A stretch of 64,000 bases of DNA from Bacillota bacterium. Its GTDB lineage: Bacteria > Bacillota > Clostridia > Christensenellales > CAG-917. Location: NCBI GenBank assembly GCA_023665365.1, contig JAMPEA010000002.1, forward strand, positions 5,051-69,050, read 5' to 3'. The notes below the pieces were generated by a model, which worked only from the letters and a program-made list of their open reading frames with translations, was not told where the DNA came from and made no database searches. A program made the position numbers and the translations under genes. Shown here in pieces: positions 30,024 through 64,000 of this stretch (positions within the stretch are counted from its first letter, which is position 1; each line of letters begins with the position of its first letter).

Positions 30024-30041
30024 AATTTTACAAATATTGAA

Positions 30042-30728: not shown

Positions 30729-30759
30729 ATATGACCTCTTATATTATTTTTGAATATTG

Positions 30760-30834: not shown

Positions 30835-30853
30835 AATGCTTTGGGAGTATATT

Positions 30854-31072: not shown

Positions 31073-31201
31073 TTTGCGCTGGAAAATTTTATTTTAATTT
31101 TATTGCAAATGGGTATTTACAATATACGTTATAAAGGTATAAAATATATAAGCAATATATTCGCGCGCTACGCGTACGCGCGTAGGTATGGGAGAAAGAT
31201 T

Positions 31202-41603: not shown

Positions 41604-41643
41604 CATTGTTTATAGGGGTTAAAATAATAGGAGGAGCAATACT

Positions 41644-42045
41644 ATGGCGGGTAACATAATGAATTGGCAAGATTATAAAAACAAACAAAAGCAAATAAGT
41701 GAACAAGAAAAGTTAAGAATTGAAACCGGCGAAGATATAGCAAGGATTATTACAGACATTATAGAATATAGAAATGATAACGGTATAAGCCAACGAGATA
41801 TTGCCGAAAAAACGGGATTAAAACAACCTGCAATAGCGAGAATGGAAAAGCTTGATACAATGCCCAGATTGGATACCATATCTCTAATCGCCAATGCAAT
41901 AGGCTATAAATTAGAACTTGTGGAAAAAGAGAAAGCACAAGAAAGCGTTACTATTGATATAGGTCACGATTGCTATAATTGTATGTGTTATAAAATTACT
42001 GCAAGTCTTTTTAATAATAAAAAGGAGATTTACTGTTATGATTAA
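41644..42045 (+). CDS. HigA-like XRE antitoxin with C-terminal extension (candidate chaperone-addiction segment)
   Basis: HTH 'ISQRDIAEKTGLKQPAIARMEK', then a ~40-aa Cys/aromatic-rich tail 'IDIGHDCYNCMCYKITASLFNNKKEIYCYD'. RBS GGAGGAG. Confidence 0.75.
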   Translation: MAGNIMNWQDYKNKQKQISEQEKLRIETGEDIARIITDIIEYRNDNGISQRDIAEKTGLKQPAIARMEKLDTMPRLDTISLIANAIGYKLELVEKEKAQESVTIDIGHDCYNCMCYKITASLFNNKKEIYCYD

Positions 42046-42424
42046 TATAAAAGAAATGGAGATACATAATGCATCCTTTAAAGTCAATCATATAGAAGGA
42101 GAGTCATTTAATATACCTGCACAATTCGGGCGATCGATAGATCATATAAACGATGGCAGATATTTATTAACTTTAACTATTAACGTCAAAAATGAAAAAG
42201 ATAAACCGTTTCCTTTTGATTTGGAATGTGCCATAAATGCATATTTTGAGTGCGATAATAACGAAACAGAAGATGAAGCGAAGAAATATATAGCCGAAGA
42301 GGGAACGGCAATCGTTTTTCCTTATCTAAGATCCTACATATCGACTCTAACATCGGCATCTATGATACCTCCATTAGTTTTACCGATAATTGATTTGGCA
42401 AAAATATTTGATGATAAATTATAA
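42038..42424 (+). CDS. SecB-like chaperone
   Basis: Collinear with E. coli SecB: 'YLLTLTINVKN', 'FDLECAINAYFEC' and 'AIVFPYLRSYISTLTSASMIPPLVLPIIDLAKIF' (compare '[33 protein letters not shown]'). 8-nt overlap with the antitoxin gene. Confidence 0.75.
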   Translation: MINIKEMEIHNASFKVNHIEGESFNIPAQFGRSIDHINDGRYLLTLTINVKNEKDKPFPFDLECAINAYFECDNNETEDEAKKYIAEEGTAIVFPYLRSYISTLTSASMIPPLVLPIIDLAKIFDDKL

Positions 42425-50174: not shown

Positions 50175-50362
50175 AACTGCATAATACAAAATTTTACGTT
50201 TAAAAGCAACAGGATTATTCGACAATTTATGACAAATCGAGGTTTTTGCGCAAATTTTGCGTTTTTATAGGCAAACTATGTGAATTGTCAAGGTTTTTTT
50301 TAGAATTTTTGCAAGATAGTTTTAAATTTAACTGTATTGTAATGTTTAAATTTTTGCAGAGA

Positions 50363-50394
50363 CTCGTGCAGGACGAAATTTCGTCCTGCACGAG
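50363..50394. terminator. perfect 32-nt palindrome (bidirectional terminator-like)
   Basis: ctcgtgcaggacgaaa/tttcgtcctgcacgag, downstream of the IS30 transposase stop. Confidence 0.5.
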
Positions 50395-50439
50395 CATATA
50401 GTATATAAAATTCGCATATTGACTTAAAGCAGAAAAAGC

Positions 50440-51600
50440 AAGCAAAAGTTACTTGTAGTTAAAATTTAATAATTTAGCTGATAGGTTTTATAAATACGAG
50501 CAGTGCAATTTAAACAATTCGTTTGAGGTGGCAAAATCAAGCACCTGTCTGGGATAGTTATTAACCCAATCTTCAACCGCCTGTATTTCCTCTTTCGTAA
50601 ACTTCGCAAGGTCTACACCTTTTGGGAGCAAACGGCGAATTTCACGATTAAGTCGTTCATTTGTTCCGCGTTCATAGCTCGAATAAGGATGACAATAATA
50701 CATAATTGTTCGTTTACCTCGATATATAGAACGTTCAAGCCCGATGCAATCGGAAAACTCTGTACCGTTATCAACAGTAATACTACGAAAGACCTGCCTA
50801 AACATTTTACCATAACGACGTTCAAGAATATTTAAACAGCGAATAACACTTTCGGTTTTTTTATTGGGCATCTGCATTATAATTTCCTTACGAGTAAGGC
50901 GTTCGGAAAGAACGAGCAGGGTAGTTTTTGATGCCCCTACGACGCAATCCATTTCCCAGTGACCAAAGCTATCTCGCGCATTTATATCATTTGGGCGATT
51001 TTCAATGCTAATACCTTTCGGTGCGCTTTTTGCTATCGTTGTACGCTTGTGCTTTTTCGGTCGAGATTTAAGCGGCAAGTCTTGCAAATCTATATTGTAA
51101 AATAAGCCCATTTCAATATAACGATAGAGTGTAGTTTTACTTATTTGAGTTTGAAATGGCAATCCTTTACGCTTAATCTCACCGAGAACAGCACACGGCG
51201 ATAGCTTATCTACGAGAACGCGCTTTTCGACATAACGAACAAACTCATAATCATTGCCGATTTTGAGAGGTGCGCCTTTTGAATGTGAATTCATATCACA
51301 TAAATCCTGTGCTTTATTTGGACTATATCGTGTCTCATATTTCCACGTTTGCCCGTCTAAATGCTGATATGAGCCACGTTTCAACTCATTATAAACGGTG
51401 GCAAGACAGACGCCTAATTTTTCGGCGATTTCCTTTTTAGACAATTTAGCACGCAAATATGCTTCTAATTGCAAACGCTGAGTATACGTCAAATTTTTAG
51501 TTCCGCGTTTTTTCATTTTTTCTATCCCCTCGTACAGCAATCGGGGGATAAGTAACGGACGGCAACGCGCTAAACCGCTTTTGCTCGTCCGTTTTACTTA
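50440..51600 (-). mobile_element. IS30-family insertion sequence (ends not resolved)
   Basis: Defined by the transposase ORF. I could not identify convincing terminal inverted repeats, so the boundaries are approximate. Confidence 0.5.
50488..51516 (-). CDS. IS30-family transposase
   Basis: N-terminal HTH 'SKKEIAEKLGVCLATVYNELKR'. DDE region 'HWEMDCV', 'TVDNGTEF' and 'PYSSYERGTNERLNREIRR'. RBS GAGGGGA. Confidence 0.9.
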   Translation of the reverse strand: MKKRGTKNLTYTQRLQLEAYLRAKLSKKEIAEKLGVCLATVYNELKRGSYQHLDGQTWKYETRYSPNKAQDLCDMNSHSKGAPLKIGNDYEFVRYVEKRVLVDKLSPCAVLGEIKRKGLPFQTQISKTTLYRYIEMGLFYNIDLQDLPLKSRPKKHKRTTIAKSAPKGISIENRPNDINARDSFGHWEMDCVVGASKTTLLVLSERLTRKEIIMQMPNKKTESVIRCLNILERRYGKMFRQVFRSITVDNGTEFSDCIGLERSIYRGKRTIMYYCHPYSSYERGTNERLNREIRRLLPKGVDLAKFTKEEIQAVEDWVNNYPRQVLDFATSNELFKLHCSYL

Positions 51601-51683
51601 TAACCCGACTTGCCCCTACTCCTTGACTGATTTCAAACATTGTGTCTGTGACAAAAGGCAAAAAAGAAAAGGAGGTTAATCTT

Positions 51684-51758
51684 GTGAAACTACTAACAAT
51701 CCTGCAAATTCTCTTAGTAGTCCTACAAATCATTAAAGAAATAGATAGGAAAGATTAA
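51684..51758 (+). CDS. 24-aa hydrophobic peptide (type I toxin-like), speculative
   Basis: GGAGG (51671-51675) lies 8 nt before GTG 51684. Peptide 'MKLLTILQILLVVLQIIKEIDRKD': a TM helix plus a charged tail. Confidence 0.3.
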   Translation: MKLLTILQILLVVLQIIKEIDRKD

Positions 51759-52188
51759 CCCCTTTTCTATCGAGGAGTGTAGCACAACGATTGAAGTCTG
51801 TCAAGTTCGCCCGCTGTGCCAGCCCCTAACCACGAGAGGATTTTTTTAAGTGCTTTGCACTTTGGCTATTTCTTCCGCGCTTGCTCCGCAAGCGAATAAA
51901 CAGAGTAGTAGTCTTGGACGTTTCCCTGCTCGAAAAAAAGTCAAGGGTCGTAAAAATAATTTAAAAACTTTTGCCGTTAGCATTGTAAGTTGTAGGCGTC
52001 AAAACTTTTTAAATTTTTTTTATTCTTCGCTTTGCTCGTCCCTTGACTTTTTTCTCACGGACGGTGCACTTGGCAATCTTGGCAGGCAAGAGGTGCAAGC
52101 CACCTTGCACCTCTACCTTAATTATGAGATGAGGATTAAATCGAAAAATTCGTCGCCCCCATTGACGACCAAGGGGAAAGGGTAACAT

Positions 52189-53199
52189 ATGAACAACTAC
52201 TATCAATCCAACAGCGAAACTCGCAACAAAATTCTTTGTCGCTTCTCAATGTTTGACGGCGCGGGTCTTGACTTGACCTCTGCACGTTCCTTTGACGACG
52301 CGCTCGATATGGCGGGTTTGGACTACACCGCAGAGAAAGCACCCATCTTTCTTGAAAATGGCAAGAAGATTGAAAACAACTTCGCTGTCGTAAAATCCGA
52401 CAATCCCGAGCACGTACTCGGTGTAGTAGGCAATCAGTATCAGGCAGTGAGCAACCGCGATGCGTTTGCGATTGCCGAAGAGATTGTCAACGAGGGTTAT
52501 GCCTCTTATGAGGTCGGTGGACCCTCGATGAAATCGAAGAACGCGCTCGATTATGCAAAGAGCTTCCTTGTCCTACGCGGGGACGACTTCAATGTAGGTG
52601 ACGACGTTTTCAATTCGTTTGTCGTTTTCAACAACAGTTTCGACGGCTCGACTGGCGTACAATTTCGAGTTATCTGTCAGCGCGTCGTTTGTATGAACGG
52701 AATGGTTCGTTATCTCGGTGGTATTAAAAATCAGATACGCATTAACGTACAACACACACGCACCGCTAACGAGCGTATTGAGAAAGCGAACAAAATCCTT
52801 ATGCAACGCCAAAACGACATTGAAAGCATAAAGAGAGAGGCGCAAGCATTTACGGCGCAACACTTCACCCGCAAAGAGTTCGAAAAAGAAATTATCCCGC
52901 TTATACTGCGTGAAAAGAAGATGGTCGAGAATGAAAAGGAACGCGAACGCGGATACGAGCGCGTAGACCAAGTTGTATGCCAACTACTGCAAGCGTACAA
53001 CGCCGATGACGTGCAAAATTACGCGGATAGTGCTTATCGCACAATCCTTGCAATTTCAGACTACGAGAGCCACAGCGCACCGCTCCGCGAGACAGGCAAC
53101 GGACAAATATATATGAACAGGATTGTCAAAGGAATGGCACTTACAACTGCCGTTGCTCAATATATCGCAAGCACACGCGGCATAGCAATTAAAGCATAA
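52189..53199 (+). CDS. DUF932 (phage/plasmid-like) protein
   Basis: 'FDDALDMAGLDYTAEKAPIF', 'LGVVGNQYQAVSNRDAF' and 'NSFDGSTGVQF'. Confidence 0.75.
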   Translation: MNNYYQSNSETRNKILCRFSMFDGAGLDLTSARSFDDALDMAGLDYTAEKAPIFLENGKKIENNFAVVKSDNPEHVLGVVGNQYQAVSNRDAFAIAEEIVNEGYASYEVGGPSMKSKNALDYAKSFLVLRGDDFNVGDDVFNSFVVFNNSFDGSTGVQFRVICQRVVCMNGMVRYLGGIKNQIRINVQHTRTANERIEKANKILMQRQNDIESIKREAQAFTAQHFTRKEFEKEIIPLILREKKMVENEKERERGYERVDQVVCQLLQAYNADDVQNYADSAYRTILAISDYESHSAPLRETGNGQIYMNRIVKGMALTTAVAQYIASTRGIAIKA

Positions 53200-53250
53200 C
53201 TGAAATATAAACCGAGGCGGGGCGGTTAATCCCCGCCAAAGGAGAAACTT

Positions 53251-53568
53251 ATGTTATCAATCGAATATATCACAATAGCAAGCCACAAAGCAAATGCAAT
53301 AGACAAAAGAGCAATTTCCGAATTGAAATGGCGAATACTTTCGGACATTGAACTATATCACTTAACCGAAGATTATGGAATAACAAAAGACAGTGCCTGC
53401 GACGAAAGCAACTATATCATAGTTGAAATAGAAGGTTATGAAAATATCGCCTATATCGATTGTGACAATGATTGTATTTACGAAGTAGTACAGCCAATCA
53501 ATAGAGCCGAAAACAAACTATATCCAATGCAGAGAGTTGAAATTAAGCCTATCTATAAGAGGCTTTGA
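53251..53568 (+). CDS. hypothetical acidic protein (105 aa)
   Basis: RBS AAAGGAG. No recognised family. Confidence 0.45.
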   Translation: MLSIEYITIASHKANAIDKRAISELKWRILSDIELYHLTEDYGITKDSACDESNYIIVEIEGYENIAYIDCDNDCIYEVVQPINRAENKLYPMQRVEIKPIYKRL

Positions 53569-53620
53569 TAATTTAACTAACCGACCGCAGGCGGTATATC
53601 CTGCGGAAAGGATGAATGCG

Positions 53621-54184
53621 ATGAACAAAGCGGTAATGATTAGTATTCAACCGAAATGGTGCGAACTTATAACAATCGAAAAAAAGCTGATAGAGGTACG
53701 CAAAACTCGCCCGTCCATAGAAACGCCGTTTAAGTGCTATATCTATGAAACAAAAAGTAGGACGAAATATTGGTCGCAACCTATGCCTATTCCGTATACA
53801 GAGGGCAGAGGAAAGGTTATCGGCGAGTTTATCTGCGATAGGATTGACGAGTATAACACGTCGTGGTTGGACGGAGAAGATAGATTAGAGCATACTACTT
53901 ATCTTGACGATGAGGAAATTATGGACTATATGAACGGGTATCTTGATAAAAAGTTTTACGGCTGGCATATATCCGACCTTAAAATCTACGACACGCCGAA
54001 AGAGTTGGGGGAGTTTGAAAGAGAGTGTTTCGAGGATTTTTATAAAGGTATTGGTTCAAAAGTCTGCCATAAGTGCGACCAATATCTGATGACTACAATG
54101 TATGAGCCGTGTGATTGTAAAAATGGCGGATATAAACCGCTTACCCGTCCACCGCAATCGTGGCAATTTGTTGAGGAGGTGTGA
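53621..54184 (+). CDS. ASCH-like domain protein
   Basis: 'MISIQPKWCELITIEKKLIEVRKTRP' is an ASCH-type N-terminus. ATG 53612 is an alternative start. Confidence 0.55.
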   Translation: MNKAVMISIQPKWCELITIEKKLIEVRKTRPSIETPFKCYIYETKSRTKYWSQPMPIPYTEGRGKVIGEFICDRIDEYNTSWLDGEDRLEHTTYLDDEEIMDYMNGYLDKKFYGWHISDLKIYDTPKELGEFERECFEDFYKGIGSKVCHKCDQYLMTTMYEPCDCKNGGYKPLTRPPQSWQFVEEV

Positions 54185-54185
54185 T

Positions 54186-54584
54186 ATGGAAAGATTGACA
54201 GAAAGCAGTTTAGATAGCGGTTTTATCGATGACGATTTGATTTTAAGGCAAGCATATAACCGCCTTGCCGAGTTAGAGGACAAGATAGAGAACGGCACGC
54301 TTGTAGAAGTGCCTTGCAAAATAGGTGACATTGTGTATCAAGTATGTAATGCTTGTGGTTTATGGGATATAGAAGAGTGGCGAATAACAAGTACACAAAT
54401 GACTGACGGAAAACTAACGCTAATAAATGTAGAAAGTGATATACCGTTCGTGATAAAAGTGCGCAAATCATTTGAATACCCGCTCGGACAAAATTTATTT
54501 TTCACTCGTAAGAAAGCGGAAAAGAGATTGGAGGAATTGAAAAATGAAAGAAATAATAAGGTTGACGAGCTTACACAGCATTGA
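54186..54584 (+). CDS. hypothetical phage-type protein (132 aa)
   Basis: RBS GAGGAGG. Starts 1 nt after the upstream stop. Confidence 0.5.
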   Translation: MERLTESSLDSGFIDDDLILRQAYNRLAELEDKIENGTLVEVPCKIGDIVYQVCNACGLWDIEEWRITSTQMTDGKLTLINVESDIPFVIKVRKSFEYPLGQNLFFTRKKAEKRLEELKNERNNKVDELTQH

Positions 54585-54775
54585 GAGTTGCAGAGACAAA
54601 CACAGAGGATGGCGAATAGCCGTCCTCTGTGTTTGCGAGCGTTTACCCAATGCCAAGCCCTTTATGCCGTAAACGCTATGGAGCACGCACATATAAATTT
54701 TTGCCGAATACTTGCACACCCGCGCGAATTATGTTAAACTTTATCCAATTTATAGATATTTCAAGGGGTTATACT

Positions 54776-55480
54776 ATGGCTGAAAATGAATTGATTTGCC
54801 CGATTTGTGGCGAACCTACATTCAAAATGTACGGAAATTATAGAAAAGACGGACTTTGTGCAGAACACGGCAGACAAGCCAAAGCAAAAGAGATTGTACA
54901 ATGTCCCGATTGTGGTAAATGGCACAAAGCCGATGAAAGTTGTGCATGCAAAAACACAGTGCTGCCAGAACTGCCCGAAAACGCAGAAAACGAACTGAAT
55001 TGCATAATTTGCGGAAAGCCATCCAATGGAAAACATTTTTGCTACAACTGTTGGTCAAAATATAAAGACAAATCGATTGACATAAGAATAACAAACTGCA
55101 ACTCAACACAAATACTTGATGAATACGGCACAAGAAGAAAAAAAGCAAAGGACGGAAGGTTTGTTCGCAGTCTATCAGAAAAAATCATCATCGATTATTT
55201 TTTCGATAATTTTATAAGAGTTGTATATGAAAAAACTATACCTTATGTGAACGAGAAAGGGGAAGATAAAGAACTGCATCCAGATTTTTATCTAACAGAT
55301 TACGATTTATATATTGAGTTTAATGGATTAACTGATAAAGCATATTTAAGAAAAAAAGAATATGCAAATGCAATTTACAAGCAAAAAGGCTTAAAGGTCG
55401 AAATACTCGAAAGCGATGACACAGACGATATAGAAAAGACAATGCAACGATTACTCAGTAAATATAAAAAAAACAATTAA
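54776..55480 (+). CDS. zinc-ribbon protein with C-terminal PD-(D/E)xK-like nuclease domain
   Basis: Three CxxC pairs ('CPICG', 'CPDCG', 'CIICG..CYNC'). C-terminus 'RSLSEKIIIDYF...LHPDFYLTDYDLYIEFNG' resembles Vsr/DUF2726-type nuclease cores. Confidence 0.5.
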   Translation: MAENELICPICGEPTFKMYGNYRKDGLCAEHGRQAKAKEIVQCPDCGKWHKADESCACKNTVLPELPENAENELNCIICGKPSNGKHFCYNCWSKYKDKSIDIRITNCNSTQILDEYGTRRKKAKDGRFVRSLSEKIIIDYFFDNFIRVVYEKTIPYVNEKGEDKELHPDFYLTDYDLYIEFNGLTDKAYLRKKEYANAIYKQKGLKVEILESDDTDDIEKTMQRLLSKYKKNN

Positions 55481-55483
55481 AAC

Positions 55484-55510
55484 AAGGGAGCTGTTTTGCT
55501 CCCTTATTTT
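55484..55510. terminator. bidirectional terminator between convergent modules
   Basis: Stem aagggagc/gctccctt followed by 'atttt'. Confidence 0.7.
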
Positions 55511-55511
55511 A

Positions 55512-55763
55512 TCACTTTTTCACTATAAAATTAACAGACCGACCGTTTTCACGCTTTACGCTCTCATAAACACGTTTCCGCTCATCTTTGGATAATATTC
55601 GACCACAGTGATTTTGAGCCCAAATAACACTCTTGTGATATCCTCTTCGGATATTAAATATCCTGCCTTTTTCGGGCGAAGTGGATAACCATTTTCTTTC
55701 GTTCATATCAGCCAAAGTACTATGTCTATTATTAGAAGCAATCACATTGTTTTTCTTTGCCAT
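55512..55763 (-). CDS. small basic hypothetical protein (83 aa)
   Basis: RBS AAAGGAA. Last gene of the minus-strand module. Confidence 0.5.
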   Translation of the reverse strand: MAKKNNVIASNNRHSTLADMNERKWLSTSPEKGRIFNIRRGYHKSVIWAQNHCGRILSKDERKRVYESVKRENGRSVNFIVKK

Positions 55764-55807
55764 AATATAAATTCCTTTTCCCTTATCCCTGGGAGCGAGG
55801 TAATGTT

Positions 55808-57949
55808 TTATTTTCTTTTATCGCTGTCCTTTATCTTCGCGAGGTCGTTGAAGAAATAACTATTTTCAGACAGCATTTCATCGAAGCTCGCTTTTTCAGT
55901 GGCGAACTCGGGTAGGTCATTAAGTCCAACAGGGGAGCGCATAGATTTTTCGGCGAACACCTCGCTGAAACAATCAGTAGAAAATCTGCGCGAGTATATC
56001 TTTTTAGACATAAGATAGTATTTTTTATCTTTGCGACCACCGTCCTGCGTTCCTTGTTCAACTTGCAAATTAACTTTCATATAACCGAACTGGTTGTATA
56101 TTCGCTTGTAATGATTTTGGATTGCAGTCATCACAGTTTTTATTAAGTGCATAGCTAAGGTATTGTCGCCTCTATAAAACCTGTATTTTGTATAGACGTT
56201 TTGGAACTTTCCAAAGAGCCACGTATACAACATTTCTTCCAAACCGAAGAAAGGCATTGCAAGCTCCATATCGGAGCAATCGTCTATATGTACGATTTCG
56301 CACAAATCACGCGCATCCGCGCCCCAACTTTCGGGACGCTGTTCGTCCGTCAAAATCTTAATAAAAGGGAAGTTGTCCACGGTTGCTTTATGACGCGCCA
56401 TTTTGAGTGAATAATTGAACAAGTCATTATTTTGGTTTGCGTCGTCGCAATTCTTTTTCTTGCCTTGATTTTCAAGATTGTTACCGCGTTCCTTTCCTAT
56501 TTCCGTGATAGATACGACACCGAACTCAAAACTATTAGAATAACGACCGTCCTCTACAAGCTGTTTTCCGAGGCGCAGACTATCAAAATCGAGAATATGC
56601 GCGTGGCGGCTGAAACTGTCTATCAATCTGCTATCTCGTTGAAAGAAATCGCTATTCCAAAGAGGGAAGTTGCCCACGTCGTCTATCAAAGCGTCTGTGC
56701 GAACGGAATAGTTGCTGACCATAAGCGAGCTTTCTATAACGTAGATGAAATATAACTGTGCATACGTTTTGACGACACTCCAAATATCTTCCTCAAAAAG
56801 TTTGTTGTCATAGAAAAGCCCATATTGTTCGTAATCATATCCAAACAGTTTTTCTTTACAGGGTTGCTTTGTCCAACGTGCTTGCTTTTTGTCCACAAAC
56901 CTTTTTACGGTCGCAAGATTATATACTTGATGATATTCAACCGCCGTCCTAAGTTCCATTTCAAGATTTATCCAAGGAAAATGCGGGAATTTCAAGTCGT
57001 TTTCAAGTATTTTTTCAAATGCCGTATCTCGAAATATAACCTCGCACGATAAGTCCATATCCGTGACAATGGTCGTCTTTTTCTTTCCCATAGTGCCGAC
57101 AAGCATAACCACAATACATAGCGATTTTATAAAACCGCAATTCATCGCTTCCATATGGCGGAGTAGGGAATAACCTATTTTTTTGCGCATATGGTCGAAT
57201 ATTATAAGCCCTATCAATACCCACGCTATAACAGGCAATCCGCCGAACATTAAAGATAAATCGAGGATTAACTTGTAAAGCTGAAACACAATATTAACTA
57301 CGTCGATACTAAATGCGAAGTAGATTATAAATGCAAATGTTTCCGCCATAATGGATAGTACATTCAGATTTACAAGCCATATAAAAAGCCACAATTTCCA
57401 CCATAAGCTATGATTGCGAACGAAAGATATATAATCAGACAACCATAAGCGGGCAGGATTATATACTTTCTTATATAACAGCTTATGTATTCGTAAAGGC
57501 TTAGTATCTTTGTCATAGTCATTGTTTTGACGATAAAATATATCTTTCATCAGCTGAAATATAAGTATCGAAACCATTACAACTATAAGCAACACGCCGA
57601 TACCAAAAACTATAATAGGCGCAAGAGACAATAAATAGCCTTTAAAATTACTCAAATCCGCAAATGCTTTCCAATACTCGACAAATGACAATTTAAATTC
57701 ATCGAAGCCGCTTATAATAGGGAAGTCCACGGTTGATACTTGCGTTACGGTAGGCGTTATATTATGCCTAATATCGAATAAGGTGCAAAAGCTGTATGCA
57801 ATCGACGTTCCCGCATCACGGATTGCCTCCACGATGCGGAACAGGGCAGGGCGATATACAAAAGCCGTTAGCAACATAAATATAACAGTTATCAAAATAC
57901 AGATATAATGACGATAGTCTATATTTTTTATTTTCGATATAAGTTTCAT
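55808..57949 (-). CDS. polytopic membrane protein with C-terminal P-loop NTPase (Zot/pI-like motifs)
   Basis: ~6 N-terminal TM segments. Walker A-like 'GTMGKKKTT', Walker B-like 'GVVSITEIG', and 'LKMARHKATVDNFPFIKILTDEQ' reminiscent of Zot 'HRH...itQ'. Start set at ATG 57949. Confidence 0.5.
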   Translation of the reverse strand: MKLISKIKNIDYRHYICILITVIFMLLTAFVYRPALFRIVEAIRDAGTSIAYSFCTLFDIRHNITPTVTQVSTVDFPIISGFDEFKLSFVEYWKAFADLSNFKGYLLSLAPIIVFGIGVLLIVVMVSILIFQLMKDIFYRQNNDYDKDTKPLRIHKLLYKKVYNPARLWLSDYISFVRNHSLWWKLWLFIWLVNLNVLSIMAETFAFIIYFAFSIDVVNIVFQLYKLILDLSLMFGGLPVIAWVLIGLIIFDHMRKKIGYSLLRHMEAMNCGFIKSLCIVVMLVGTMGKKKTTIVTDMDLSCEVIFRDTAFEKILENDLKFPHFPWINLEMELRTAVEYHQVYNLATVKRFVDKKQARWTKQPCKEKLFGYDYEQYGLFYDNKLFEEDIWSVVKTYAQLYFIYVIESSLMVSNYSVRTDALIDDVGNFPLWNSDFFQRDSRLIDSFSRHAHILDFDSLRLGKQLVEDGRYSNSFEFGVVSITEIGKERGNNLENQGKKKNCDDANQNNDLFNYSLKMARHKATVDNFPFIKILTDEQRPESWGADARDLCEIVHIDDCSDMELAMPFFGLEEMLYTWLFGKFQNVYTKYRFYRGDNTLAMHLIKTVMTAIQNHYKRIYNQFGYMKVNLQVEQGTQDGGRKDKKYYLMSKKIYSRRFSTDCFSEVFAEKSMRSPVGLNDLPEFATEKASFDEMLSENSYFFNDLAKIKDSDKRK

Positions 57950-58047
57950 TACGCTACCGCCTTTCCCGTATAAATGAGATAGCCTATTAAAAATGCGATT
58001 GCCAACAGAAATACGATTATGCATATACGCTTAAATGTTTTCATAGG

Positions 58048-58248
58048 TTAAATCTCCACATATCCTTTTGCTTGCAAATACTCCCGATTTTGTGCATTGT
58101 CTACGTACACGCCGCCGACGTTTGCAAAGCCGTATTTAGCACAAGCCGAACCGTAGGCAATATCCTTATTTTCGCCTTGAATTGTTGTAAATTTGTTATC
58201 ATTAAGAGTGCCGAACCCGAACACTATCAAATACTGTCGCTTAACCAT
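58048..58248 (-). CDS. small hypothetical protein (66 aa)
   Basis: ATG 58248 with an AAGGA RBS. The longer ORF to 58332 lacks an RBS. Confidence 0.4.
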   Translation of the reverse strand: MVKRQYLIVFGFGTLNDNKFTTIQGENKDIAYGSACAKYGFANVGGVYVDNAQNREYLQAKGYVEI

Positions 58249-58455
58249 TAAACACCGTCCTTTTTGAAAGTACACTTTCAATTTTCCCATTCTTTTACTG
58301 TTTTGCAAATTTTGTTTGACTTTTGTCTGCAATTTTTTTATACTGTCGATAGTGATAGTTGCTAAGCAATTTTGCGAGGTCTATCGGCAAGCACCGCTTC
58401 TTTCAGCGGTGGACGAGGCAACAATCCTCATCAACAGCGTCCCAATAAGTCGCTG

Positions 58456-58905
58456 TTATTTTTTACGCAAAATATTTTTGATTTTAATTTTGTCGTTTGT
58501 CGTCAAAGGTTTTGTGTCCTCGATATACTTATCCTCATAAATATTGCTACGGTCTATCCACGCACGCCTATCGCCGACTTGACGATTATGGTCGTTATCA
58601 AGAATAATTGCTTTTGTGGTGCGTCCAACTATTGGAGCAACAAACAACTTTCCGCTTTTATCCTCATCTATAACGGCGCATAAACGAGGTTTATGTATCT
58701 GATTGCCAAATACTTTATCGTCAGTGACTACAAGCCTCGGCTCGTTATATGTTCGTTCGTTAATAGAACTTAGTTCAGAAATACGAGTTTTGGCATATTT
58801 GCGTTGTGCTTCCGATAAACTCTTATCGCTGATGCGCGTTTTAAAGTAATTCAACTTCTCACGCACAGAGTAATACTTTTTCCCTGTCTTTCCGTGTATA
58901 AACAT
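58456..58905 (-). CDS. basic hypothetical protein (149 aa), possible PemK/SH3-like fold
   Basis: RBS AAGGAG overlaps the upstream stop. 'KPRLCAVIDEDKSGKLFVAPIVGRTT' is vaguely MazF/PemK-like. Confidence 0.4.
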   Translation of the reverse strand: MFIHGKTGKKYYSVREKLNYFKTRISDKSLSEAQRKYAKTRISELSSINERTYNEPRLVVTDDKVFGNQIHKPRLCAVIDEDKSGKLFVAPIVGRTTKAIILDNDHNRQVGDRRAWIDRSNIYEDKYIEDTKPLTTNDKIKIKNILRKK

Positions 58906-58910
58906 ACTTA

Positions 58911-60536
58911 CTACTCCTTTTTCTTTTTCGATTTAGTCTTTTTGCGTTTAAACGGGTCATCGTCAAGATTGTTCAAAGAATTTTGTTCTTTGGATTGCTT
59001 TTCTTTTCGCTGTTTATGTTTCGACCCAGTCGTTTCAAGCGCCGCGGCTTTCTCCTTTTTGCGCTTTTCGGATTTCTTTGCTTTTCGCTTCTTGACTGCC
59101 GATTTTATCCCTTTATAAATCCACCTAAACGGCGCAAGGATTATCTTCAAAAGAAACACTACAAAGTTGAGTGCGCCGGGGACAAAAGCAATAATCAGAA
59201 TTATCGCTATAACCGCAAGTACGATTGCAATAATTTTTCCCGCAGTTTTCCAAAACTGACTAAACTTTTTAACATTTTCGCTTGCCTCGACTTTAAAATC
59301 CCAGCCGTCGGGGTTGACAGGTTCTGTACTACCTGTTTGCTTATTATCAATAACGCCGAGATTGTAAGTAACGCCGTCCGTTTCAAATTTTAAGCGCAAA
59401 ATAGTAACTTCGCCGATAATAGTTGAATTATATTCGTGCCACCAATAGTAGGAACCATTTATAAGAGTTTCTCTACGTTGTTCCTCATATTTGGTATCCT
59501 TGAAACGCAATACCCATTTTGTTTTTTTAATAGCGTCCTCAGCGTCCGCAGTCAACTTTGTACCAGTGGATATATTTATAAGCGCACCGCTATAAATAGT
59601 GCCTGTCATACTTGATAGAAATTCATCGGGCGTTTGAATTCTACCCCAACTATATTTATGTGCAAAAAGTCCACCGCCGTTATAGTGTACAGTCGGGTCG
59701 TCTTTATTTAGGACAACGCTTTCACGTTTTACTTCTCCATACGTTTCGCTTCCTTGGTCATAGGTCGAACGCAAATAAGACTGCTCAACCCAAGAGACTT
59801 TTGCCTCAACCAACGTGTCGATAGGTCTATCCGTATCAAATGCTACAAAATGACTGTCGCACGCTTCTTCATGAAAAACATAACCGCTATCATAACGCAC
59901 ATAGCCTACAAATTTGCTTTCGGGTTTAATGACAATCGTATCTATATCAAGAACCGCACACGCAGGTTGTCCATTTATTGTGGAAAAGCGATATTCTTTA
60001 CTTATATTAAACGGCACTTCGTTTATTTTGTTATCGTGGTCTGACTGTTTATCTCCAAGACTTTCATCAAACTTACGATAAATAGACGTAACTCCGTAAT
60101 ATCTTGCACTAGCGGTGGATACGGTGATACCCTTAACGACGTATTTATAAAATACGCCCGATGAGTTTACATATTGTAATAAATAATTGCTTGGGTCAAT
60201 TTCATAATATGACGAAAGCGATATATTTATAGAGCTTGCTCGCAAGTCCTTATCCTGTCCGCTCGGCTGATAAACGTAAACGAAAAGCTCGTTACTTTCA
60301 CTTTCCGCAAGCTGTATAATGTCAAGTGTATAATCTTTCTTGACTTCGGGATATTTGCTTTCATCGAACGTGCTATCCTTGTGCAAGTCGTCAAGCACGT
60401 CGGAATAGACAGTATCAACTGCATAGCCGATACCGTCGTTTACCATAATTGCTTGCGCTAAGCCCGTTACAACGGCAACGGCTACGAGAACCGCCACAAG
60501 CAACGTGATTAAAACTCTGTTATATGTATTTTTCAT
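58911..60536 (-). CDS. type I membrane protein with large ectodomain and Lys-rich cytoplasmic tail
   Basis: Signal 'LITLLVAVLVAVAVVTGLAQA'. C-terminal TM pair 'IIAIVLAVIAIILIIAFV..VVFLLKIIL'. ~65-aa tail rich in K/R/E, 'KKRKAKKSEKRKKEK...KRKKTKSKKKKE'. Confidence 0.6.
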   Translation of the reverse strand: MKNTYNRVLITLLVAVLVAVAVVTGLAQAIMVNDGIGYAVDTVYSDVLDDLHKDSTFDESKYPEVKKDYTLDIIQLAESESNELFVYVYQPSGQDKDLRASSINISLSSYYEIDPSNYLLQYVNSSGVFYKYVVKGITVSTASARYYGVTSIYRKFDESLGDKQSDHDNKINEVPFNISKEYRFSTINGQPACAVLDIDTIVIKPESKFVGYVRYDSGYVFHEEACDSHFVAFDTDRPIDTLVEAKVSWVEQSYLRSTYDQGSETYGEVKRESVVLNKDDPTVHYNGGGLFAHKYSWGRIQTPDEFLSSMTGTIYSGALINISTGTKLTADAEDAIKKTKWVLRFKDTKYEEQRRETLINGSYYWWHEYNSTIIGEVTILRLKFETDGVTYNLGVIDNKQTGSTEPVNPDGWDFKVEASENVKKFSQFWKTAGKIIAIVLAVIAIILIIAFVPGALNFVVFLLKIILAPFRWIYKGIKSAVKKRKAKKSEKRKKEKAAALETTGSKHKQRKEKQSKEQNSLNNLDDDPFKRKKTKSKKKKE

Positions 60537-60543
60537 ACGCACC

Positions 60544-61122
60544 TCAAAAAACCGTGTTAGGCGGGTCTATCGTGATAAAATCTGCAAAACAAAACTTTAT
60601 ATGATATACCGTATTGCTCCCGTTTGACGTTATAACCGCGTCTAACGGATATATAGAAGCGTCCAGCTTTGACGGTAAAACAACCGTAGCATCGGGATAT
60701 ACGAGGCTCATAAGCTCGTCCATACTGTTCACGTTAATGCTAAGCGTGAAGCTGTCTTTTCCTTTATCCGTTACGAAATATTTTGTAAAATCGAGCTTAG
60801 ACTCGCTCCACAATTTCTTTTCGCCATTTACGGAATACTCGAAATCAACGTCACCGTTTGGACGAACCGACACGTCAAAAACTACGTCGCCTTGCAAAGA
60901 ACCGAAAGTATTTGACACGTCAAAACGATAATCGTTGTTCAGATTAAACTGCATTTCGTTATGCTCGCTTACTATGCGCTCCTCGCCGTAGTTCAGATAA
61001 AACATTTTGAAATCCTCGTTCAAGCCGTTTGTAAATCTGAAAATTATCACAAGACAAACCGCAACGATGACGAACACAAGGAGCAATCCGATAAATTTAA
61101 TTACACTTTTTGACTTTCGCAT
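60544..61122 (-). CDS. N-terminally anchored hypothetical protein (192 aa)
   Basis: TM 'FIGLLLVFVIVAVCLVIIF'. RBS GAGGTGA. Ends '...ITIDPPNTVF'. Confidence 0.55.
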   Translation of the reverse strand: MRKSKSVIKFIGLLLVFVIVAVCLVIIFRFTNGLNEDFKMFYLNYGEERIVSEHNEMQFNLNNDYRFDVSNTFGSLQGDVVFDVSVRPNGDVDFEYSVNGEKKLWSESKLDFTKYFVTDKGKDSFTLSINVNSMDELMSLVYPDATVVLPSKLDASIYPLDAVITSNGSNTVYHIKFCFADFITIDPPNTVF

Positions 61123-61175
61123 AAATCACCTCGTCGGCGGAGCGTCAAACAACACTCCGCCTAATCTTCGTTTGC

Positions 61176-62498
61176 TTAAAATACAACACTGTCGGGATTG
61201 ACCGTAACGCCAGTTGCGGGGTAGGTATAGTCAAACAAGAAATTTTGCACGTATTCCACAGTCTCGCCGTCTGCCGTATATTCAAATTTAATTGAGCAAT
61301 TATATTTGTCTGCTTCGTCTATCTCTGTTGATTTAGAGAACAAGTCCAATGCGCGGAAAAGATTATCGAAACCTTGCTTAATATGCGTGTATCTCACTCC
61401 TTGTTTTTTGTATTCTTCAAATTGCTCCGTATTCTCCCAATCAGCTATTCTAACCTCCGACAACATAGTTCCCCAAAACGCATAGAAACAAAGCGGATAA
61501 CCCCACACAGGGAAATAAATGTTAAGGACATTTTCCTCATTTACAACCACCAACTCATTCCAAACACCGTTTTCAGCATCAAACAAATCTTTGCCGTTAT
61601 AAAGACAACCAAAAGAATCTGACATATCGGAAACAATACTGTGACTGCTTGCTTTTAAATCCAACGATTGTTGAGCAAATTTCAAAAAGTTAGGGTTGAT
61701 GCGCATTGATACCTTGTATTCAGTAGGAACGTCAAAAGGGATTGTATAAACAGAAGAACCCACGAAATAAACACGTGTGCTACGCTCAATAAATGCTGCA
61801 TTATATTCATAACGCAAAGGACTCTCGGAAGCACAAGCTATTTTTGTTATACCATTTGAGTTAATATGTTCACCATTCTTCCCGACATAAAAAGAAATAG
61901 GACGAAAATAACCGCTTGGTGTCATAGAAAAACGAGCACAAGCTAAATTAAGTTTTTGCTTATAATCGACTGTACAGCCCGAATACAACTTATCATTACT
62001 GCGCAAAGTTGCAGTAACTTTAATTTGTTCGCCAAATGCTTGCAAGCATTCAATGTCAGCAGTCAATGCGCCGTCCGCTGTCGGAGCAAGCGAAACGTAA
62101 TCCGTCACGACCTTTCCCGTTGCCCACTCGCTGTCGGGATTGACAAACGATATTGCCCAATCCACAGGCTCATTACCGTAAAATCCGTTATAATTGACTT
62201 TCGCCGTTAAACGTCGCACGGCTCGATTTTCATCTTCCGCCATAGGGACTGCCAACGCCGTCAACGCAATGCCGTCGTCGCTGTTGTAGGGCGTTACGAT
62301 AAACGAGGAATCCGCGACTTCCTCTATCTCGTTGTCGGTGTTGTCAGAACTGTTAAACCATTCGGACGGCTTTTGTTTGCCTGTCCCGAATAGTTGTAGG
62401 GAAAGTCCTACGCAGAATACCGCAATCATCAAAATTGCGATAAACGCAATAGCCCACTTGATTTTGTCACTTTTTACGTGTTTGTTGAATTTGTTCAT
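61176..62498 (-). CDS. N-terminally anchored hypothetical protein (440 aa)
   Basis: TM 'WAIAFIAILMIAVFCVGLSLQLF'. RBS AGGAG. Ends '...VTVNPDSVVF', similar to the 192-aa neighbour. Confidence 0.55.
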   Translation of the reverse strand: MNKFNKHVKSDKIKWAIAFIAILMIAVFCVGLSLQLFGTGKQKPSEWFNSSDNTDNEIEEVADSSFIVTPYNSDDGIALTALAVPMAEDENRAVRRLTAKVNYNGFYGNEPVDWAISFVNPDSEWATGKVVTDYVSLAPTADGALTADIECLQAFGEQIKVTATLRSNDKLYSGCTVDYKQKLNLACARFSMTPSGYFRPISFYVGKNGEHINSNGITKIACASESPLRYEYNAAFIERSTRVYFVGSSVYTIPFDVPTEYKVSMRINPNFLKFAQQSLDLKASSHSIVSDMSDSFGCLYNGKDLFDAENGVWNELVVVNEENVLNIYFPVWGYPLCFYAFWGTMLSEVRIADWENTEQFEEYKKQGVRYTHIKQGFDNLFRALDLFSKSTEIDEADKYNCSIKFEYTADGETVEYVQNFLFDYTYPATGVTVNPDSVVF

Positions 62499-62565
62499 CT
62501 TTCAAACTCCTGTATTTTATTTGAAAGATTCCTTGTTACCAAACCCCTATATTTTTTGATACTTA

Positions 62566-63672
62566 TTATGCAAACGGCTCAGCGTCGTAAAAAACAGTTT
62601 TTGTTTCGCAAATTTTGCCGAATTCTTCTGCAAAATTTCGCCTGTCCTTTGGCTTTTTTTCGATAGTGCTAAGCTCATTTATAAACACATATGCTTCGCC
62701 GGTTGGTCGTCCATATTTATCAAGACCGTCAGAATAAACCTTGATTTCATCTTTACCGACTTCTACGTAGCAGGTGATACGTCGATAAAGTTGGTCTAAG
62801 TTATCGAATGACAACGAGCTTTTATATTTTAGATACCAATATGATAACGGGACGGAGCTTGTGATAATAATCATCTCGCCGTTAAAGACCTTATTGTTAA
62901 ACCGACTTTTTACACTGGATGAAGTATTATTATCAAGCATTTTCAGCAAATCTTCGAGCTCAAAGCTCGTGTCACGCAAGTCGTCTAATATTATCGCCTT
63001 TTGTCCCATATAGTCTTGAAACGGGTCATTGCTTGACGATGATATGCAATAATCATAACCAAGACCTTTGAGATATTTTTTTGCATAAAATGTTTTTCCC
63101 GCTCCGCCACGCCCGCATATAAACATAACGTCGATATGCCTATCCGAATTCAAAGCAAGCGTCTGACAATGCAATTCCCATAATTTTTTCAACTTATTAT
63201 AAGTTTTTGTTTTCTCATCTATCGGCAACGTATTAACATACTGTAACTGTTGAGCGTAGCTATAAGCAGTAAAATCACCGATAATCTTTGATTGCTCGAT
63301 TTCACTTGCGAAATCGAAATTTGATATAACTTTTTCACGAGGGTAGACGTGCTTATATTTTTGACTTTCGTTCTCGTGTGTTAAATACATTAAAACGTCA
63401 GCTCGTCTGCCACGTACTTTACTTATAAATTGCTCGCCCGTATATTCTTTGCCATCTTCGCTTACATAGCCCAACTTAAACCATTCAGCAACGAGTTTAC
63501 TGTCTACGCCAGTCCCAAAGTACAAGTAGATATGATAATGCGGACGAGTATCGTCCATATCGTGAATTATGTAAGCCCATTGCTTAATAGTCTTATACTG
63601 CATACATACTTGCTGTATATCGACTTTTAGCTTGTCTACGTCTTGGACGATTTCATATTGCCTCAAATGCAT
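62566..63672 (-). CDS. rolling-circle Rep: HUH endonuclease (pMV158/Rep_2-like) fused to an SF3-type P-loop helicase
   Basis: HUH 'PHYHIYLYF'. Tyr motif 'MYLTHENESQKYKHVY'. Walker A 'GRGGAGKT', Walker B 'AIILDDL', motif C 'MIIITSS'. Confidence 0.75.
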   Translation of the reverse strand: MHLRQYEIVQDVDKLKVDIQQVCMQYKTIKQWAYIIHDMDDTRPHYHIYLYFGTGVDSKLVAEWFKLGYVSEDGKEYTGEQFISKVRGRRADVLMYLTHENESQKYKHVYPREKVISNFDFASEIEQSKIIGDFTAYSYAQQLQYVNTLPIDEKTKTYNKLKKLWELHCQTLALNSDRHIDVMFICGRGGAGKTFYAKKYLKGLGYDYCISSSSNDPFQDYMGQKAIILDDLRDTSFELEDLLKMLDNNTSSSVKSRFNNKVFNGEMIIITSSVPLSYWYLKYKSSLSFDNLDQLYRRITCYVEVGKDEIKVYSDGLDKYGRPTGEAYVFINELSTIEKKPKDRRNFAEEFGKICETKTVFYDAEPFA

Positions 63673-63706
63673 TTTTAACCCCTTGCATTTATATTTGCTA
63701 CTTTTT

Positions 63707-63829
63707 TATACGTTTTACACGTTTTTTCTACCCGACTTGGACAAGCCCCAAGTCGGGCAAAATATTTCTACTGTTTTGTAACTTTTTTTACAAATTGATT
63801 TTAAAGATTTTATACGTTTTATACGTTTT
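63707..63829. promoter_or_regulatory. origin-like region: two iteron pairs flanking a 10-bp-stem hairpin
   Basis: 'tatacgttttaCacgtttt' (63707-63725) and 'tatacgttttaTacgtttt' (63811-63829). Hairpin cccgacttgg/ccaagtcggg (63731-63757). 'atttgctactt' is repeated at 63693 and 63842. Confidence 0.5.
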
Positions 63830-63891
63830 CCATATTTTTCAATTTGCTACTTACAAATGCTGTAAAATAGTCCGTAAGCATGAAAATAAAT

Positions 63892-63928
63892 AAGGCAATT
63901 TCAGCATTGTTAATGATGAAATTGCCTT
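63892..63928 (-). terminator. terminator after ssb
   Basis: 12-bp stem aaggcaatttca/tgaaattgcctt with a T-rich tail on the minus strand. Confidence 0.6.
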
Positions 63929-63943
63929 ATTTTACTTTGCTTC

Positions 63944-64000
63944 TTAGAAAGGCAAATCATCGTCAGATTCACTTTGCAATTTTCCTTTCTCGGGGAGTTC
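63944..64000 (-). CDS. ssb: single-stranded DNA-binding protein, C-terminal end only (partial at window edge)
   Basis: Minus-strand translation ends '...ELPEKGKLQSESDDDLPF*', the canonical SSB acidic tip. Confidence 0.7.
   Translation of the reverse strand, partial: ELPEKGKLQSESDDDLPF

Follow-up and report, generated by a model that had tools for sequence, protein, structure and literature searches.

The DNA examined here, a stretch of 64,000 nucleotides from a Bacillota genome of the Christensenellales (contig JAMPEA010000002.1 of assembly GCA_023665365.1; hereafter the window), carries between positions 55512 and 64000 an array of nine tightly packed, co-directional open reading frames (ORFs) on the minus strand, and this array is the central operon of a self-contained 14-kb element that lies between host genes. 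The Christensenellales are heritable, health-associated gut bacteria. In the order of transcription, the array comprises the end of ssb83, a 273-bp intergenic region, and the genes for Rep368, p440, p192, p543, p149, p94, a 738-aa ORF that is the long form of p713, and p83, with spacings of 1, 5, 3, 44, 53, 67, and 123 nt and one overlap of 1 nt between them. An earlier note on this DNA had described the same compact minus-strand gene set at these positions, where the ORFs were indeed read, but the unit that it delimited (55512-64000) is too small, since the element starts at ~50282 and takes in a transposase gene and several plus-strand genes.

The boundaries of the element are marked by composition, flanking genes, and a direct repeat. 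At about 50.2 kb, the GC content falls from ~0.47 to ~0.39; a diacylglycerol-kinase-like (DAGK) gene of the host ends at 50225, and a host sugar-transferase gene (Bac_transf) lies just past the window end on L012, a contig of assembly GCA_023666095.1 that is 99.965% identical to window positions 52586-64000 and extends 3.3 kb further. Between the repeats, the element measures ~14,059 bp, running from about 50282 to 64000 in the window and for 340 bp beyond it. The repeat itself, ACATAGTTTGCCTATAA, is the sole perfect 17-bp direct repeat between the two junction regions, and its chance expectation is by our own estimate about 6e-6. The target duplication is 17 bp long at this element; in its relatives it is 15 bp long when 1-2 nt of identity are discounted as chance. 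The right end fits a consensus, ..AAAAATTCTA(T/A)AAAA(T)T(A/G)CTTGAC(T/A)TTTCA, drawn from 17 or more related elements. Because the transposase gene is the last gene inside the repeats, the plus-strand genes between it and p83 belong to the element as well. The integrase, which the earlier note would have sought by extending the contig, is therefore found inside the window, and its view that this is neither part of a conventional tailed prophage nor of a Tn916-like integrative and conjugative element (ICE) holds, the flanks being host genes and the element self-contained. The features of the element are collected in Table 1.

Table 1. Features of the integrated element, in window coordinates.
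Feature	Position	Strand	Description
Right-hand target-duplication copy	50265..50281		ACATAGTTTGCCTATAA; other copy at L012 2993-3009, about 340 bp past the window end
Right terminal sequence	50282..50320	minus	..AAAAATTCTAAAAAAAACCTTGACAATTC(A); outward-facing -35 box TTGACA at 50286-50291
Perfect hairpin 3' of transposase gene	50363..50394	minus	CTCGTGCAGGACGAAATTTCGTCCTGCACGAG; likely terminator
IS30-family DDE transposase	50488..51540	minus	350 aa; last gene of element
DUF932 protein	52189..53199	plus	336 aa; PF06067 E 1e-25; phrog_1221 E 7e-34; accessory
Three small accessory ORFs	53251..54584	plus	105 aa (53251-53568), 187 aa (53621-54184), 132 aa (54186-54584); called on L012
Zn-ribbon protein, C-terminal PD-(D/E)xK nuclease-like	54776..55480	plus	234 aa; longest ORF, from 54629, is 283 aa
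p83	55512..55763	minus	small basic protein, pI 10.8
p713	55808..57949	minus	predicted N-terminal polytopic membrane domain (about 6 TM) and C-terminal divergent P-loop ATPase
738-aa ORF	55808-58024	minus	long form of p713
mini31	57949..58044	minus	31-aa single-TM peptide, MKTFKRICIIVFLLAIAFLIGYLIYTGKAVA
p94	58048..58332	minus	small basic soluble protein, pI 9.7; 80 aa if start is 58290
p149	58456..58905	minus	basic protein, 33 K+R, pI 9.8
p543	58911..60542	minus	predicted type I membrane protein
p192	60544..61122	minus	predicted extracytoplasmic protein, N-terminal anchor
p440	61176..62498	minus	predicted extracytoplasmic protein, N-terminal anchor
Rep368	62566..63672	minus	predicted rolling-circle initiator, HUH and SF3
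Putative replication origin	63673..63945	minus	iterons and hairpin
ssb83 terminator hairpin	63888-63932	minus	
ssb83, last 18 codons	63946..64000	minus	first gene of element; remainder beyond window end

The transposase contains the Pfam domains HTH_38 (E 2.6e-6) and rve (E 6.9e-6) and matches phrog_4646, annotated as "transposase, integration and excision," at E 9e-114. It is 43-52% identical to the transposases of small GenBank phage records and gut inoviruses, including 47% to that of Faecalibacterium phage Lagaffe, and 28% identical to ORF3 of plectrovirus SpV1. IS30-type enzymes are known as phage integrases, the integrase of Lagaffe being one of them (PMC5883640). Among 32 well-flanked relatives of the element, 18 carry an IS30-type transposase in the same terminal position. 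A duplication of ~15 bp was found in the window element and 19 relatives. One relative, found with 100% identity over 14,577 bp in contigs of separate samples, occupies two unrelated chromosomal sites, each with its own 15-bp duplication, and the survey of relatives added 17 elements, 11-17 kb in length, whose duplications are unrelated in sequence and whose ends are conserved (right, ..CTTGAC(T/A)TTTCA; left, (T/C)GTAAAGTTTTA(C/T)AAT). The element of the cultured strain Pumilibacter intestinalis CLA-AA-M10 (L060, NZ_CALPCH010000018.1) is about 15.5 kb long and is flanked by TTACAAAATTTTTCTCG. A site-specific att core was rejected as the source of the repeats, which differ at every site. It can be regarded as largely established that the IS30-family transposase is the integrase of the element and that it produces a target duplication of ~15 bp.

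In four relatives (L015, L048, L052, and L081), the right and left ends of the element abut with a 2-bp spacer, the left end of the window copy itself lying outside the window; in L052, the joined ends belong to a tandem pair in a 449-kb contig. At all four junctions, the right-end TTGACT stands exactly 17 nt from a left-end TACAAT or TATACT. In L015 (PXZU01000942.1, positions 1-330), the terminal 34 bp of the right end, a TT spacer, and the left end are joined. IS30 forms junctions between its inverted repeats in minicircles and tandem dimers, complete with a junction promoter, and its classical target duplication is 2 bp (PMC9333248). The element resembles IS30 insertion sequences in the helix-turn-helix and DDE (rve) parts of its transposase, in its 2-bp-spaced joined ends, and in the layout of a junction promoter; unlike them, it has 13 kb of cargo that includes its own replicon, a duplication of about 15 bp instead of 2 bp, and terminal inverted repeats that are only weakly similar. 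In the mechanism we propose, the transposase would insert the element by copy-out/paste-in with a target duplication of ~15 bp, the right and left ends would be joined with a 2-bp spacer, either as a circle or as a tandem dimer, and the junction would assemble a sigma-70-type promoter, TTGAC(A/T)-17-TAnnnT, that is probably functional and points into the ssb83-rep-module operon. A junction-pattern scan of IMG/VR found nothing. A related element without an IS30-type transposase was observed in L001 (MT835493.1; 8516-9940 and 23766-33267), where a tyrosine integrase stands on one side of it and a Dnd-type island with PAPS_reduct/DndC-like, DUF4007, and cysteine desulfurase genes on the other.

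Rep368 displays the motifs HYHIY and YLTH of HUH nucleases and GRGGAGKT and IILDD of SF3 helicases. The window protein matches RNA_helicase at E 3.5e-8 and Rep_OBD weakly (5.7e-4), and each of the two families matches all 17 scanned sequences, namely the window Rep and 16 homologues (best Rep_OBD value, 1.4e-11), in agreement with the HUH and SF3 assignment made before. The family profile also matches the Rep helicase structures of CRESS viruses in the PDB (E 2e-7). By sequence, Rep368 is a RepB/pMV158-type HUH origin-binding nuclease joined to an SF3 helicase, and the corresponding activities are predicted. The region upstream of its gene contains four AAAACGTATAAAA-type iterons (63704-63725 and 63799-63838) around a hairpin with a 12-15-bp stem (63726-63762), whose single-stranded DNA fold has a free energy of -21.9 kcal/mol (z = -5.7). 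An N-terminal HUH nuclease, an SF3 helicase, and a hairpin-and-iteron origin are likewise found in the group of pCRESS-type and CRESS-DNA-virus Reps and pMV158 RepB; Rep368 differs from these in that it sits in an integrating 14-kb element and in that many members of its family end in D..LPF. By nicking the iteron/hairpin origin, which immediately precedes its gene, Rep368 would drive rolling-circle replication.

The first gene, ssb83, had been taken for a partial single-stranded DNA-binding protein (SSB) gene. When read on L012, it is a complete ORF of 83 aa that ends in ..SESDDDLPF; it matches neither the SSB family (PF00436) nor any other entry in Pfam, NCBIfam, or PHROG, and the DDDLPF tip is its only SSB-like part. 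A canonical bacterial SSB consists of an OB-fold domain (PF00436) of about 100 aa and an acidic tip. Homologues of ssb83 stand upstream of Rep in L060, L067, L068, L073, and L079, and the protein may handle the displaced single strand or recruit host factors. The D..LPF ending of many Rep368 homologues is shared with ssb83 and with the tips of bacterial SSBs (the window Rep ends in ..YDAEPFA, 62566-62580), and this tip may be a common docking motif for host factors.

Between Rep368 and p83 lie genes for membrane and basic proteins. By hydropathy analysis, p440 and p192 have one N-terminal transmembrane (TM) segment apiece; p543 has a signal peptide (..LAQA/I), an ectodomain of ~410 aa, a C-terminal TM segment, and a tail of 73 aa, of which 24 are K and 5 are R; and about six TM segments lie within the first 300 residues of the large protein p713 (738 aa in its long form). 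These profiles predict for p543 a type I membrane topology in which the signal peptide is cleaved and the Lys-rich tail is cytoplasmic, and they agree with the topologies that the earlier note had assigned to p440, p192, and p543; its reading of p713 as a polytopic protein with a P-loop and of p149, p94, and p83 as small basic proteins is borne out by the membrane domain and Walker A motif and by the isoelectric points, respectively. The position of p149 is that of very basic proteins of 117-119 aa in the relatives, and p83 matches no family in Pfam, NCBIfam, or PHROG. As had been noted before, capsid, portal, terminase, tail, VirB4, and relaxase genes were missing from the array; scans of its proteins against Pfam, NCBIfam, PHROG, and PADLOC gave no match to these families or to FtsK.

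The ATPase part of p713 belongs to a large and divergent family. Its Walker A motif reads GTMGKKKT, the family consensus being the canonical GxMGxGKTT, and the residues invariant in 125 sequences, which are 34-58% identical to the window protein, are K316, E508 (after the strand VVSITE), N515, and R563 in the numbering of the 738-aa form; the 713-aa start has also been chosen in another public annotation. The family comprises at least 1948 clusters at 90% identity and 1201 at 50%, all of about 700-750 aa and devoid of Pfam domains. A model of the full-length 738-aa protein was poor (pLDDT 63) and both fold searches with it were empty, whereas an AF2 model of residues 295-738 built from 125 diverse sequences reached pLDDT 97 and pTM 0.91. 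A Foldseek search of the PDB with this ATPase domain model returned nothing significant (best E 0.13); the top matches, all weak, were the STIV2 packaging NTPase B204 and HerA (E 0.14-0.5, TM-score 0.1-0.4), a retron ATPase, and AAA+ proteins. The p713 family profile had no match among PDB sequences. A Zot-like domain, as the earlier note had proposed, was rejected: an hhalign comparison with a profile of 37 gut-inovirus Zot sequences gave a probability of 8% with only a 20-column P-loop aligned, no Zot hit (PF05707) was obtained in Pfam, PHROG, or NCBIfam, and no Zot structure was present among the 50 fold matches listed.

Directly 5' of the p713 gene lies the unannotated ORF mini31, which is preceded by a GGAGA ribosome-binding site and whose stop overlaps the p713 ATG as TAATG, an arrangement that indicates translational coupling of the two genes. 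At 70 of the 79 related loci, a homologue of mini31 with a GYF(I/V)(Y/F)T motif immediately precedes the gene for the ATPase, and one is called as a 30-aa gene in L099. It had been claimed that no short single-TM gene of the kind expected for the major coat of an inovirus was present. The peptide encoded by mini31 is such a short single-TM protein, so that this part of the claim does not stand, but its basic residues are N-terminal and it has no basic C-terminal segment, so that it is not a pVIII-like coat; a scan of all ORFs of 25-110 aa found no pVIII-like gene and left mini31 as the sole single-TM candidate.

Relatives occur in 333 of 185,579 species genomes (one genome per species), mostly Christensenellales-type gut Clostridia, with the majority coming from Christensenella/Christensenellaceae, gut "Clostridia bacterium" metagenome-assembled genomes, Candidatus Gallimonas, Caccovivens, Coproplasma, Scatosoma, and Pelethenecus; one carrier, P. 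intestinalis CLA-AA-M10, is a cultured strain. In the 79 species loci, a six-gene block has a constant order: a p440-like, a p192-like, and a p543-like gene, a gene for a very basic protein, that for a TM peptide of ~30 aa, and the TM-ATPase gene. The p440-like gene is often duplicated, with a conserved N-terminal region of ~190 aa and a variable C-terminus; the paralogue in L006 carries Flg_new surface repeats, and Ig-like motifs also occur among p440 paralogues. The basic tail is common to all the homologues of p543, which are 27-50% identical to it and come from 25 or more loci. The remainder of the element varies. In the Type B architecture, which is that of the window and of 17 of the 79 loci, ssb83 and the HUH-SF3 Rep precede the block, and reverse-strand accessory genes and the transposase follow it; in Type A (about 46 of the 79), a SprT-like gene, a gene for a 147-aa protein, and small genes precede the block, which is followed by a Rep of PF23343 (ORF2/G2P, filamentous-phage type) and the transposase. 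A rolling-circle Rep is present in all 32 well-flanked relatives (24 of the PF23343 G2P type and 9 of the HUH-SF3 type), and a third family, Rep_1, is found 3' of the block in L102-L105. Since three unrelated Rep types adjoin it, the block is tied to rolling-circle replication generally and not to one Rep; and since no other part of the family is as well conserved, every relative having the block whereas the Rep, the integrase, and the accessory genes differ among them, it bears the mark of a core function and not of cargo. In L102 (6494-12629), as also in L104 and L105, the block is followed by a Rep_1 initiator of the pC194/pUB110 type, and in L102 further by Fic, Abi_2, CD-NTase, and HsdM genes, so that the family carries defense cargo.

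The proteins of the block matched nothing in Pfam, PHROG, NCBIfam, or PADLOC save for compositional hits in the TM segment and tail of p543, the family profiles of p543 and p440 found nothing among PDB sequences, and that of p543 found nothing in Pfam. A defense system was rejected as the identity of the block for lack of a PADLOC match, and a known phage or plasmid as that of the element, a megablast search with the 8.5 kb of the minus-strand array having returned no match among 50,697 records of phages and 72,556 of plasmids. The check that the earlier note had suggested, by profile and structure searches, thus places the module in no known phage, inovirus, or ICE family. No description of such an element was found in searches of the literature on inoviruses, IS30, the Christensenellales, and rolling-circle and pleomorphic elements; neither the six-gene block nor the 15-bp duplication, nor the family itself, seems to have been described in the libraries and papers searched.

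The closest parallels are with inoviruses of gut Firmicutes, represented by the complete circular genomes of bajarodino virus 74 and 13 (PQ006121 and PQ006184; Tubulavirales). Their gene order is a small OB-like (ssDNA-binding-like) gene, pVIII-like coat genes of 53 and 69 aa, an anchored protein of 557-577 aa, a membrane protein of 94-96 aa, Zot, a Rep (Viral_Rep and SF3), and an IS30-type transposase, with end-like motifs, CTTGCAATTCAG..TGTAAATTTATATTT, between the transposase and the next gene. The likeness to the element extends to a compact size of about 9-14 kb with mostly one-directional genes, a HUH and SF3 Rep (the Rep368 helicase domain is 26-27% identical to theirs), an IS30-family transposase that is 43% identical and is the last gene after Rep, similar end motifs, and a matching placement of a large anchored protein, small genes, and an ATPase, in that order. 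The difference is that the bajarodino viruses have Zot (PF05707) and pVIII-like coats, whereas the element has p440, p192, p543, mini31, and the TM-ATPase, with no detectable homology. As judged from gene order, the block occupies the coat/adsorption/Zot position of gut inoviruses that share the transposase type and end sequences, without homology to the genes found there. The backbone is of a known kind, namely that of a phage-like, temperate element that replicates by rolling circle and integrates by an IS30-type enzyme; the suggestion that the arrangement as a whole is not established in Firmicutes fails to this extent, since a HUH-SF3 Rep and an IS30-type transposase are already combined in the bajarodino viruses and only the membrane/ATPase module is unprecedented. 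With the Tubulavirales at large, the element shares a rolling-circle Rep, a small compact genome, and a protein with a signal peptide and a C-terminal anchor, p543 being alike in topology only and not in homology. Inovirus Reps with an SF3 domain and the use of transposases for integration were noted by Roux et al. (2019; PMC6813254), whose detection relied on pI-like ATPases (PMC6813254); these are lacking in the present elements.

Further parallels involve plectroviruses, pleolipoviruses, and plasmaviruses. The Spiroplasma plectrovirus SpV1-R8A2B has a small rolling-circle genome, an IS30-family transposase (ORF3), a host of Firmicutes lineage, and a 715-aa ORF1 with a signal peptide and a C-terminal TM segment, which is the topology of p543; it differs in having no homologue of p713, p440, p192, or p543 and a wall-less host. 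A plectrovirus link through ORF1 was rejected, since this is an anchored ectodomain protein and not an ATPase, the transposase alone being held in common. Pleolipoviruses have a set of core genes (HRPV-1 genes 3, 4, and 8 and ORFs 6 and 7; PMC12642806), and the Pleolipoviridae (HRPV-1) and Plasmaviridae (L2) resemble the element in a conserved block, comprising a spike-like protein of type I, small membrane proteins, and an NTPase, that is coupled with interchangeable replication modules, in having no capsid genes, and in the existence of temperate members (PMC12642806). The envelope proteins of Acholeplasma phage L2 have, as p543 does, a signal peptide, a C-terminal TM segment, and a basic tail. 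In contrast, VP8 of HRPV-1 is a soluble ATPase of 343 aa and not a TM fusion, and the hosts of HRPV-1 and L2 are archaea or wall-less Mollicutes. Homology to HRPV-1 was rejected after an hmmsearch with the p713 profile and blastp searches with all element proteins, in which nothing fell below E 0.003 (that hit being a 15-residue chance match), and homology to L2 after searches whose matches were all local, short, and low in score (best E 0.001-0.006, 7-28 bits), with none of them domain-wide. The likeness to pleolipoviruses and plasmaviruses that the earlier note had drawn accordingly survives at the level of gene topology and not at that of protein homology.

The explanation that best accounts for the locus, and that we hold with middling confidence, is that of a temperate, tailless, particle-forming element, virus-like and replicating by rolling circle, whose module for export or morphogenesis is new. 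It retains what had been proposed from the sequence alone, a novel compact rolling-circle element, virus-like and capsid-less or else a minimal transfer element, since no known family could be assigned and there is no tailed-prophage or ICE context. We infer that the block is the element's own machine for export or morphogenesis. The p713 ATPase, as a membrane-embedded motor together with mini31, would bring the replicated DNA to the membrane or across it; exit from the cell would be non-lytic and in the company of p440, p192, and p543, which would be exposed on the released entity; and contacts with the DNA would be made by the basic proteins and by p543 through its Lys-rich tail. The released form could be a membrane-derived particle with a p543 spike or an atypical filament. 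That the block is a new type of virion or DNA-export system is a tentative proposition. Equally tentative is the more specific picture of a new lineage of capsid-less, non-lytic rolling-circle viruses in walled gut Firmicutes, a bacterial counterpart of the pleolipoviruses and plasmaviruses, whose particles would consist of host membrane with p543, p440, and p192, whose DNA would pass by way of the p713/mini31 class of ATPase, and whose lysogeny would be governed by the junction switch of an IS30-type transposase.

Several observations weigh against a particle-forming element. No particle, excised circle, or single-stranded form was seen, every examined contig being integrated or tandem; the ATPase contigs of 9-14 kb have no terminal overlap that would mark a free circular genome, and several of them end in host genes. 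No pVIII-type coat, capsid, or lysis gene emerged from Pfam, NCBIfam, or the small-ORF scan, and the role of the ATPase as a DNA motor is drawn from its domain architecture and the very weak matches to B204 and HerA. No IS30-type transposase is within reach in 14 of the 32 well-flanked relatives. In L015, the one metagenome hit, the sequence upstream of the right-end copy is not the transposase gene but the reverse complement of the first left-end gene; given this inverted context, a simple circle was rejected for the joined ends of this contig, which may instead be the inversion product of a reactive end-to-end junction. The ATPase was found in only 2 of 2.9 million IMG/VR contigs and in one unverified 57-kb GenBank "phage" scaffold, a weak objection because virus callers depend on known marker genes. 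Finally, we know of no precedent for a membrane-enveloped particle that leaves a walled bacterium.

Transfer of DNA from cell to cell without a virion is an unlikely explanation, in which Rep would serve as the relaxase, p713 as a coupling protein or TraB-type translocase, and p440, p192, and p543 in cell-cell contact, with single- or double-stranded DNA passing into the recipient. The layout of p713, an N-terminal TM domain with a C-terminal ASCE ATPase, is that of FtsK/SpoIIIE/TraB and of type IV coupling proteins, and its only fold matches, very weak as they are, are to motors of the FtsK-HerA superfamily; the Flg_new surface repeats and Ig-like motifs of p440 paralogues can be counted in the same direction, as can the presence among the accessory genes of DUF932, SprT-like, and SSB-tail protein genes, which are typical of plasmid leading regions. 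However, neither the window element nor its relatives yielded a match in Pfam, NCBIfam, or PHROG to VirB4, VirB6, VirD4, FtsK_SpoIIIE or other FtsK-like translocases, relaxases, or cell-wall hydrolases, the families that would mark a T4SS-type ICE or an actinomycete AICE with TraB, three unrelated Reps are swapped beside the module, upstream or downstream of it, unlike the co-evolving pairs of relaxase and coupling protein, and the layout, transposase, and end sequences agree with those of inoviruses. It is quite unlikely that the element is instead a highly diverged true inovirus, in which p713 would stand for pI/Zot, p543 would be a pIII-type adsorption protein, and mini31 or another small protein would be the coat. 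The gene order parallels that of Ff phage and gut inoviruses, p543 has the topology of pIII (signal peptide and C-terminal anchor), mini31 resembles pVII/pIX in size, and the Rep and transposase types are common to inoviruses; yet the homology to Zot failed in the Pfam and hhalign comparisons, and the 50 fold matches listed included no structure of the Zot N-terminal domain. Moreover, mini31 has a basic N-terminus and no DNA-binding C-terminus, its coupling to the ATPase gene is unsuited to production in thousands of copies, and inoviruses of the same habitat have pVIII-like genes of 53 and 69 aa, clear in the control inoviruses L010 and L011, of which these elements have none.

A non-transmissible integrative replicon or large transposon, with the block as cargo for adhesion, exclusion, or defense, or a satellite that uses the particle of a helper, is in our assessment distinctly improbable. 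Such an element would fit the sighting of integrated or tandem copies only, the defense-like accessory genes, including the PD-(D/E)xK nuclease and, in L102, Fic, Abi_2, and CD-NTase, and the failure to recognize a structural protein. Against it stand the conservation of the block in every relative described above and the lack of a PADLOC match for it beyond the compositional hit in p543, and the identical copy at two sites in different samples and the spread over 333 species argue for horizontal spread.

Although the family is widespread, being present in 333 species genomes and forming about 1200 clusters of ATPases at 50% identity, it is all but missing from the collections of phages and plasmids searched. 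If the block is indeed a transmission machine, it would represent a new exit route for small rolling-circle elements from a Gram-positive-type cell and a new family of membrane ATPases, and it would imply that inovirus backbones, made up of Rep and an IS30-type integrase, can trade one complete set of morphogenesis genes for another. How the transposase works is a further point of interest, in view of the 15-bp target duplication and of the way in which the junction promoter is laid out. P. intestinalis CLA-AA-M10 provides a cultured host in which direct testing is possible.

Among the accessory genes, that for the DUF932 protein also lies beside the module in L003, L036, and L071, and the 187-aa protein matches phrog_3136 (E 6e-26) and the PADLOC candidate PDC-M11B. 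The Zn-ribbon protein encoded at 54776-55480 matches zinc-ribbon families in Pfam as well as PDC-S69 of PADLOC (E 2e-14) and HEAT_CxxC_PD-DEXK (E 4e-9), and homologues of it occur in 24 of the 79 related loci, in either orientation, between the ATPase and transposase genes. Elsewhere in the window, a low-GC patch on the plus strand at 41256-42424 carries a trio resembling a toxin-antitoxin-chaperone (TAC) system, with a Gp49/HigB-like toxin (PF05973), an HTH_3 antitoxin-like protein, and a SecB-like chaperone, and beside it a minus-strand gene (37721-39031) encodes a 436-aa protein with an N-terminal TIR domain of the CAP12/Pycsar type, possibly a defense gene. A second low-GC patch (0.377), at 30001-32000, overlaps the start of a 1264-aa ORF (31245-35039, plus strand) that has no Pfam match at E 1e-5.

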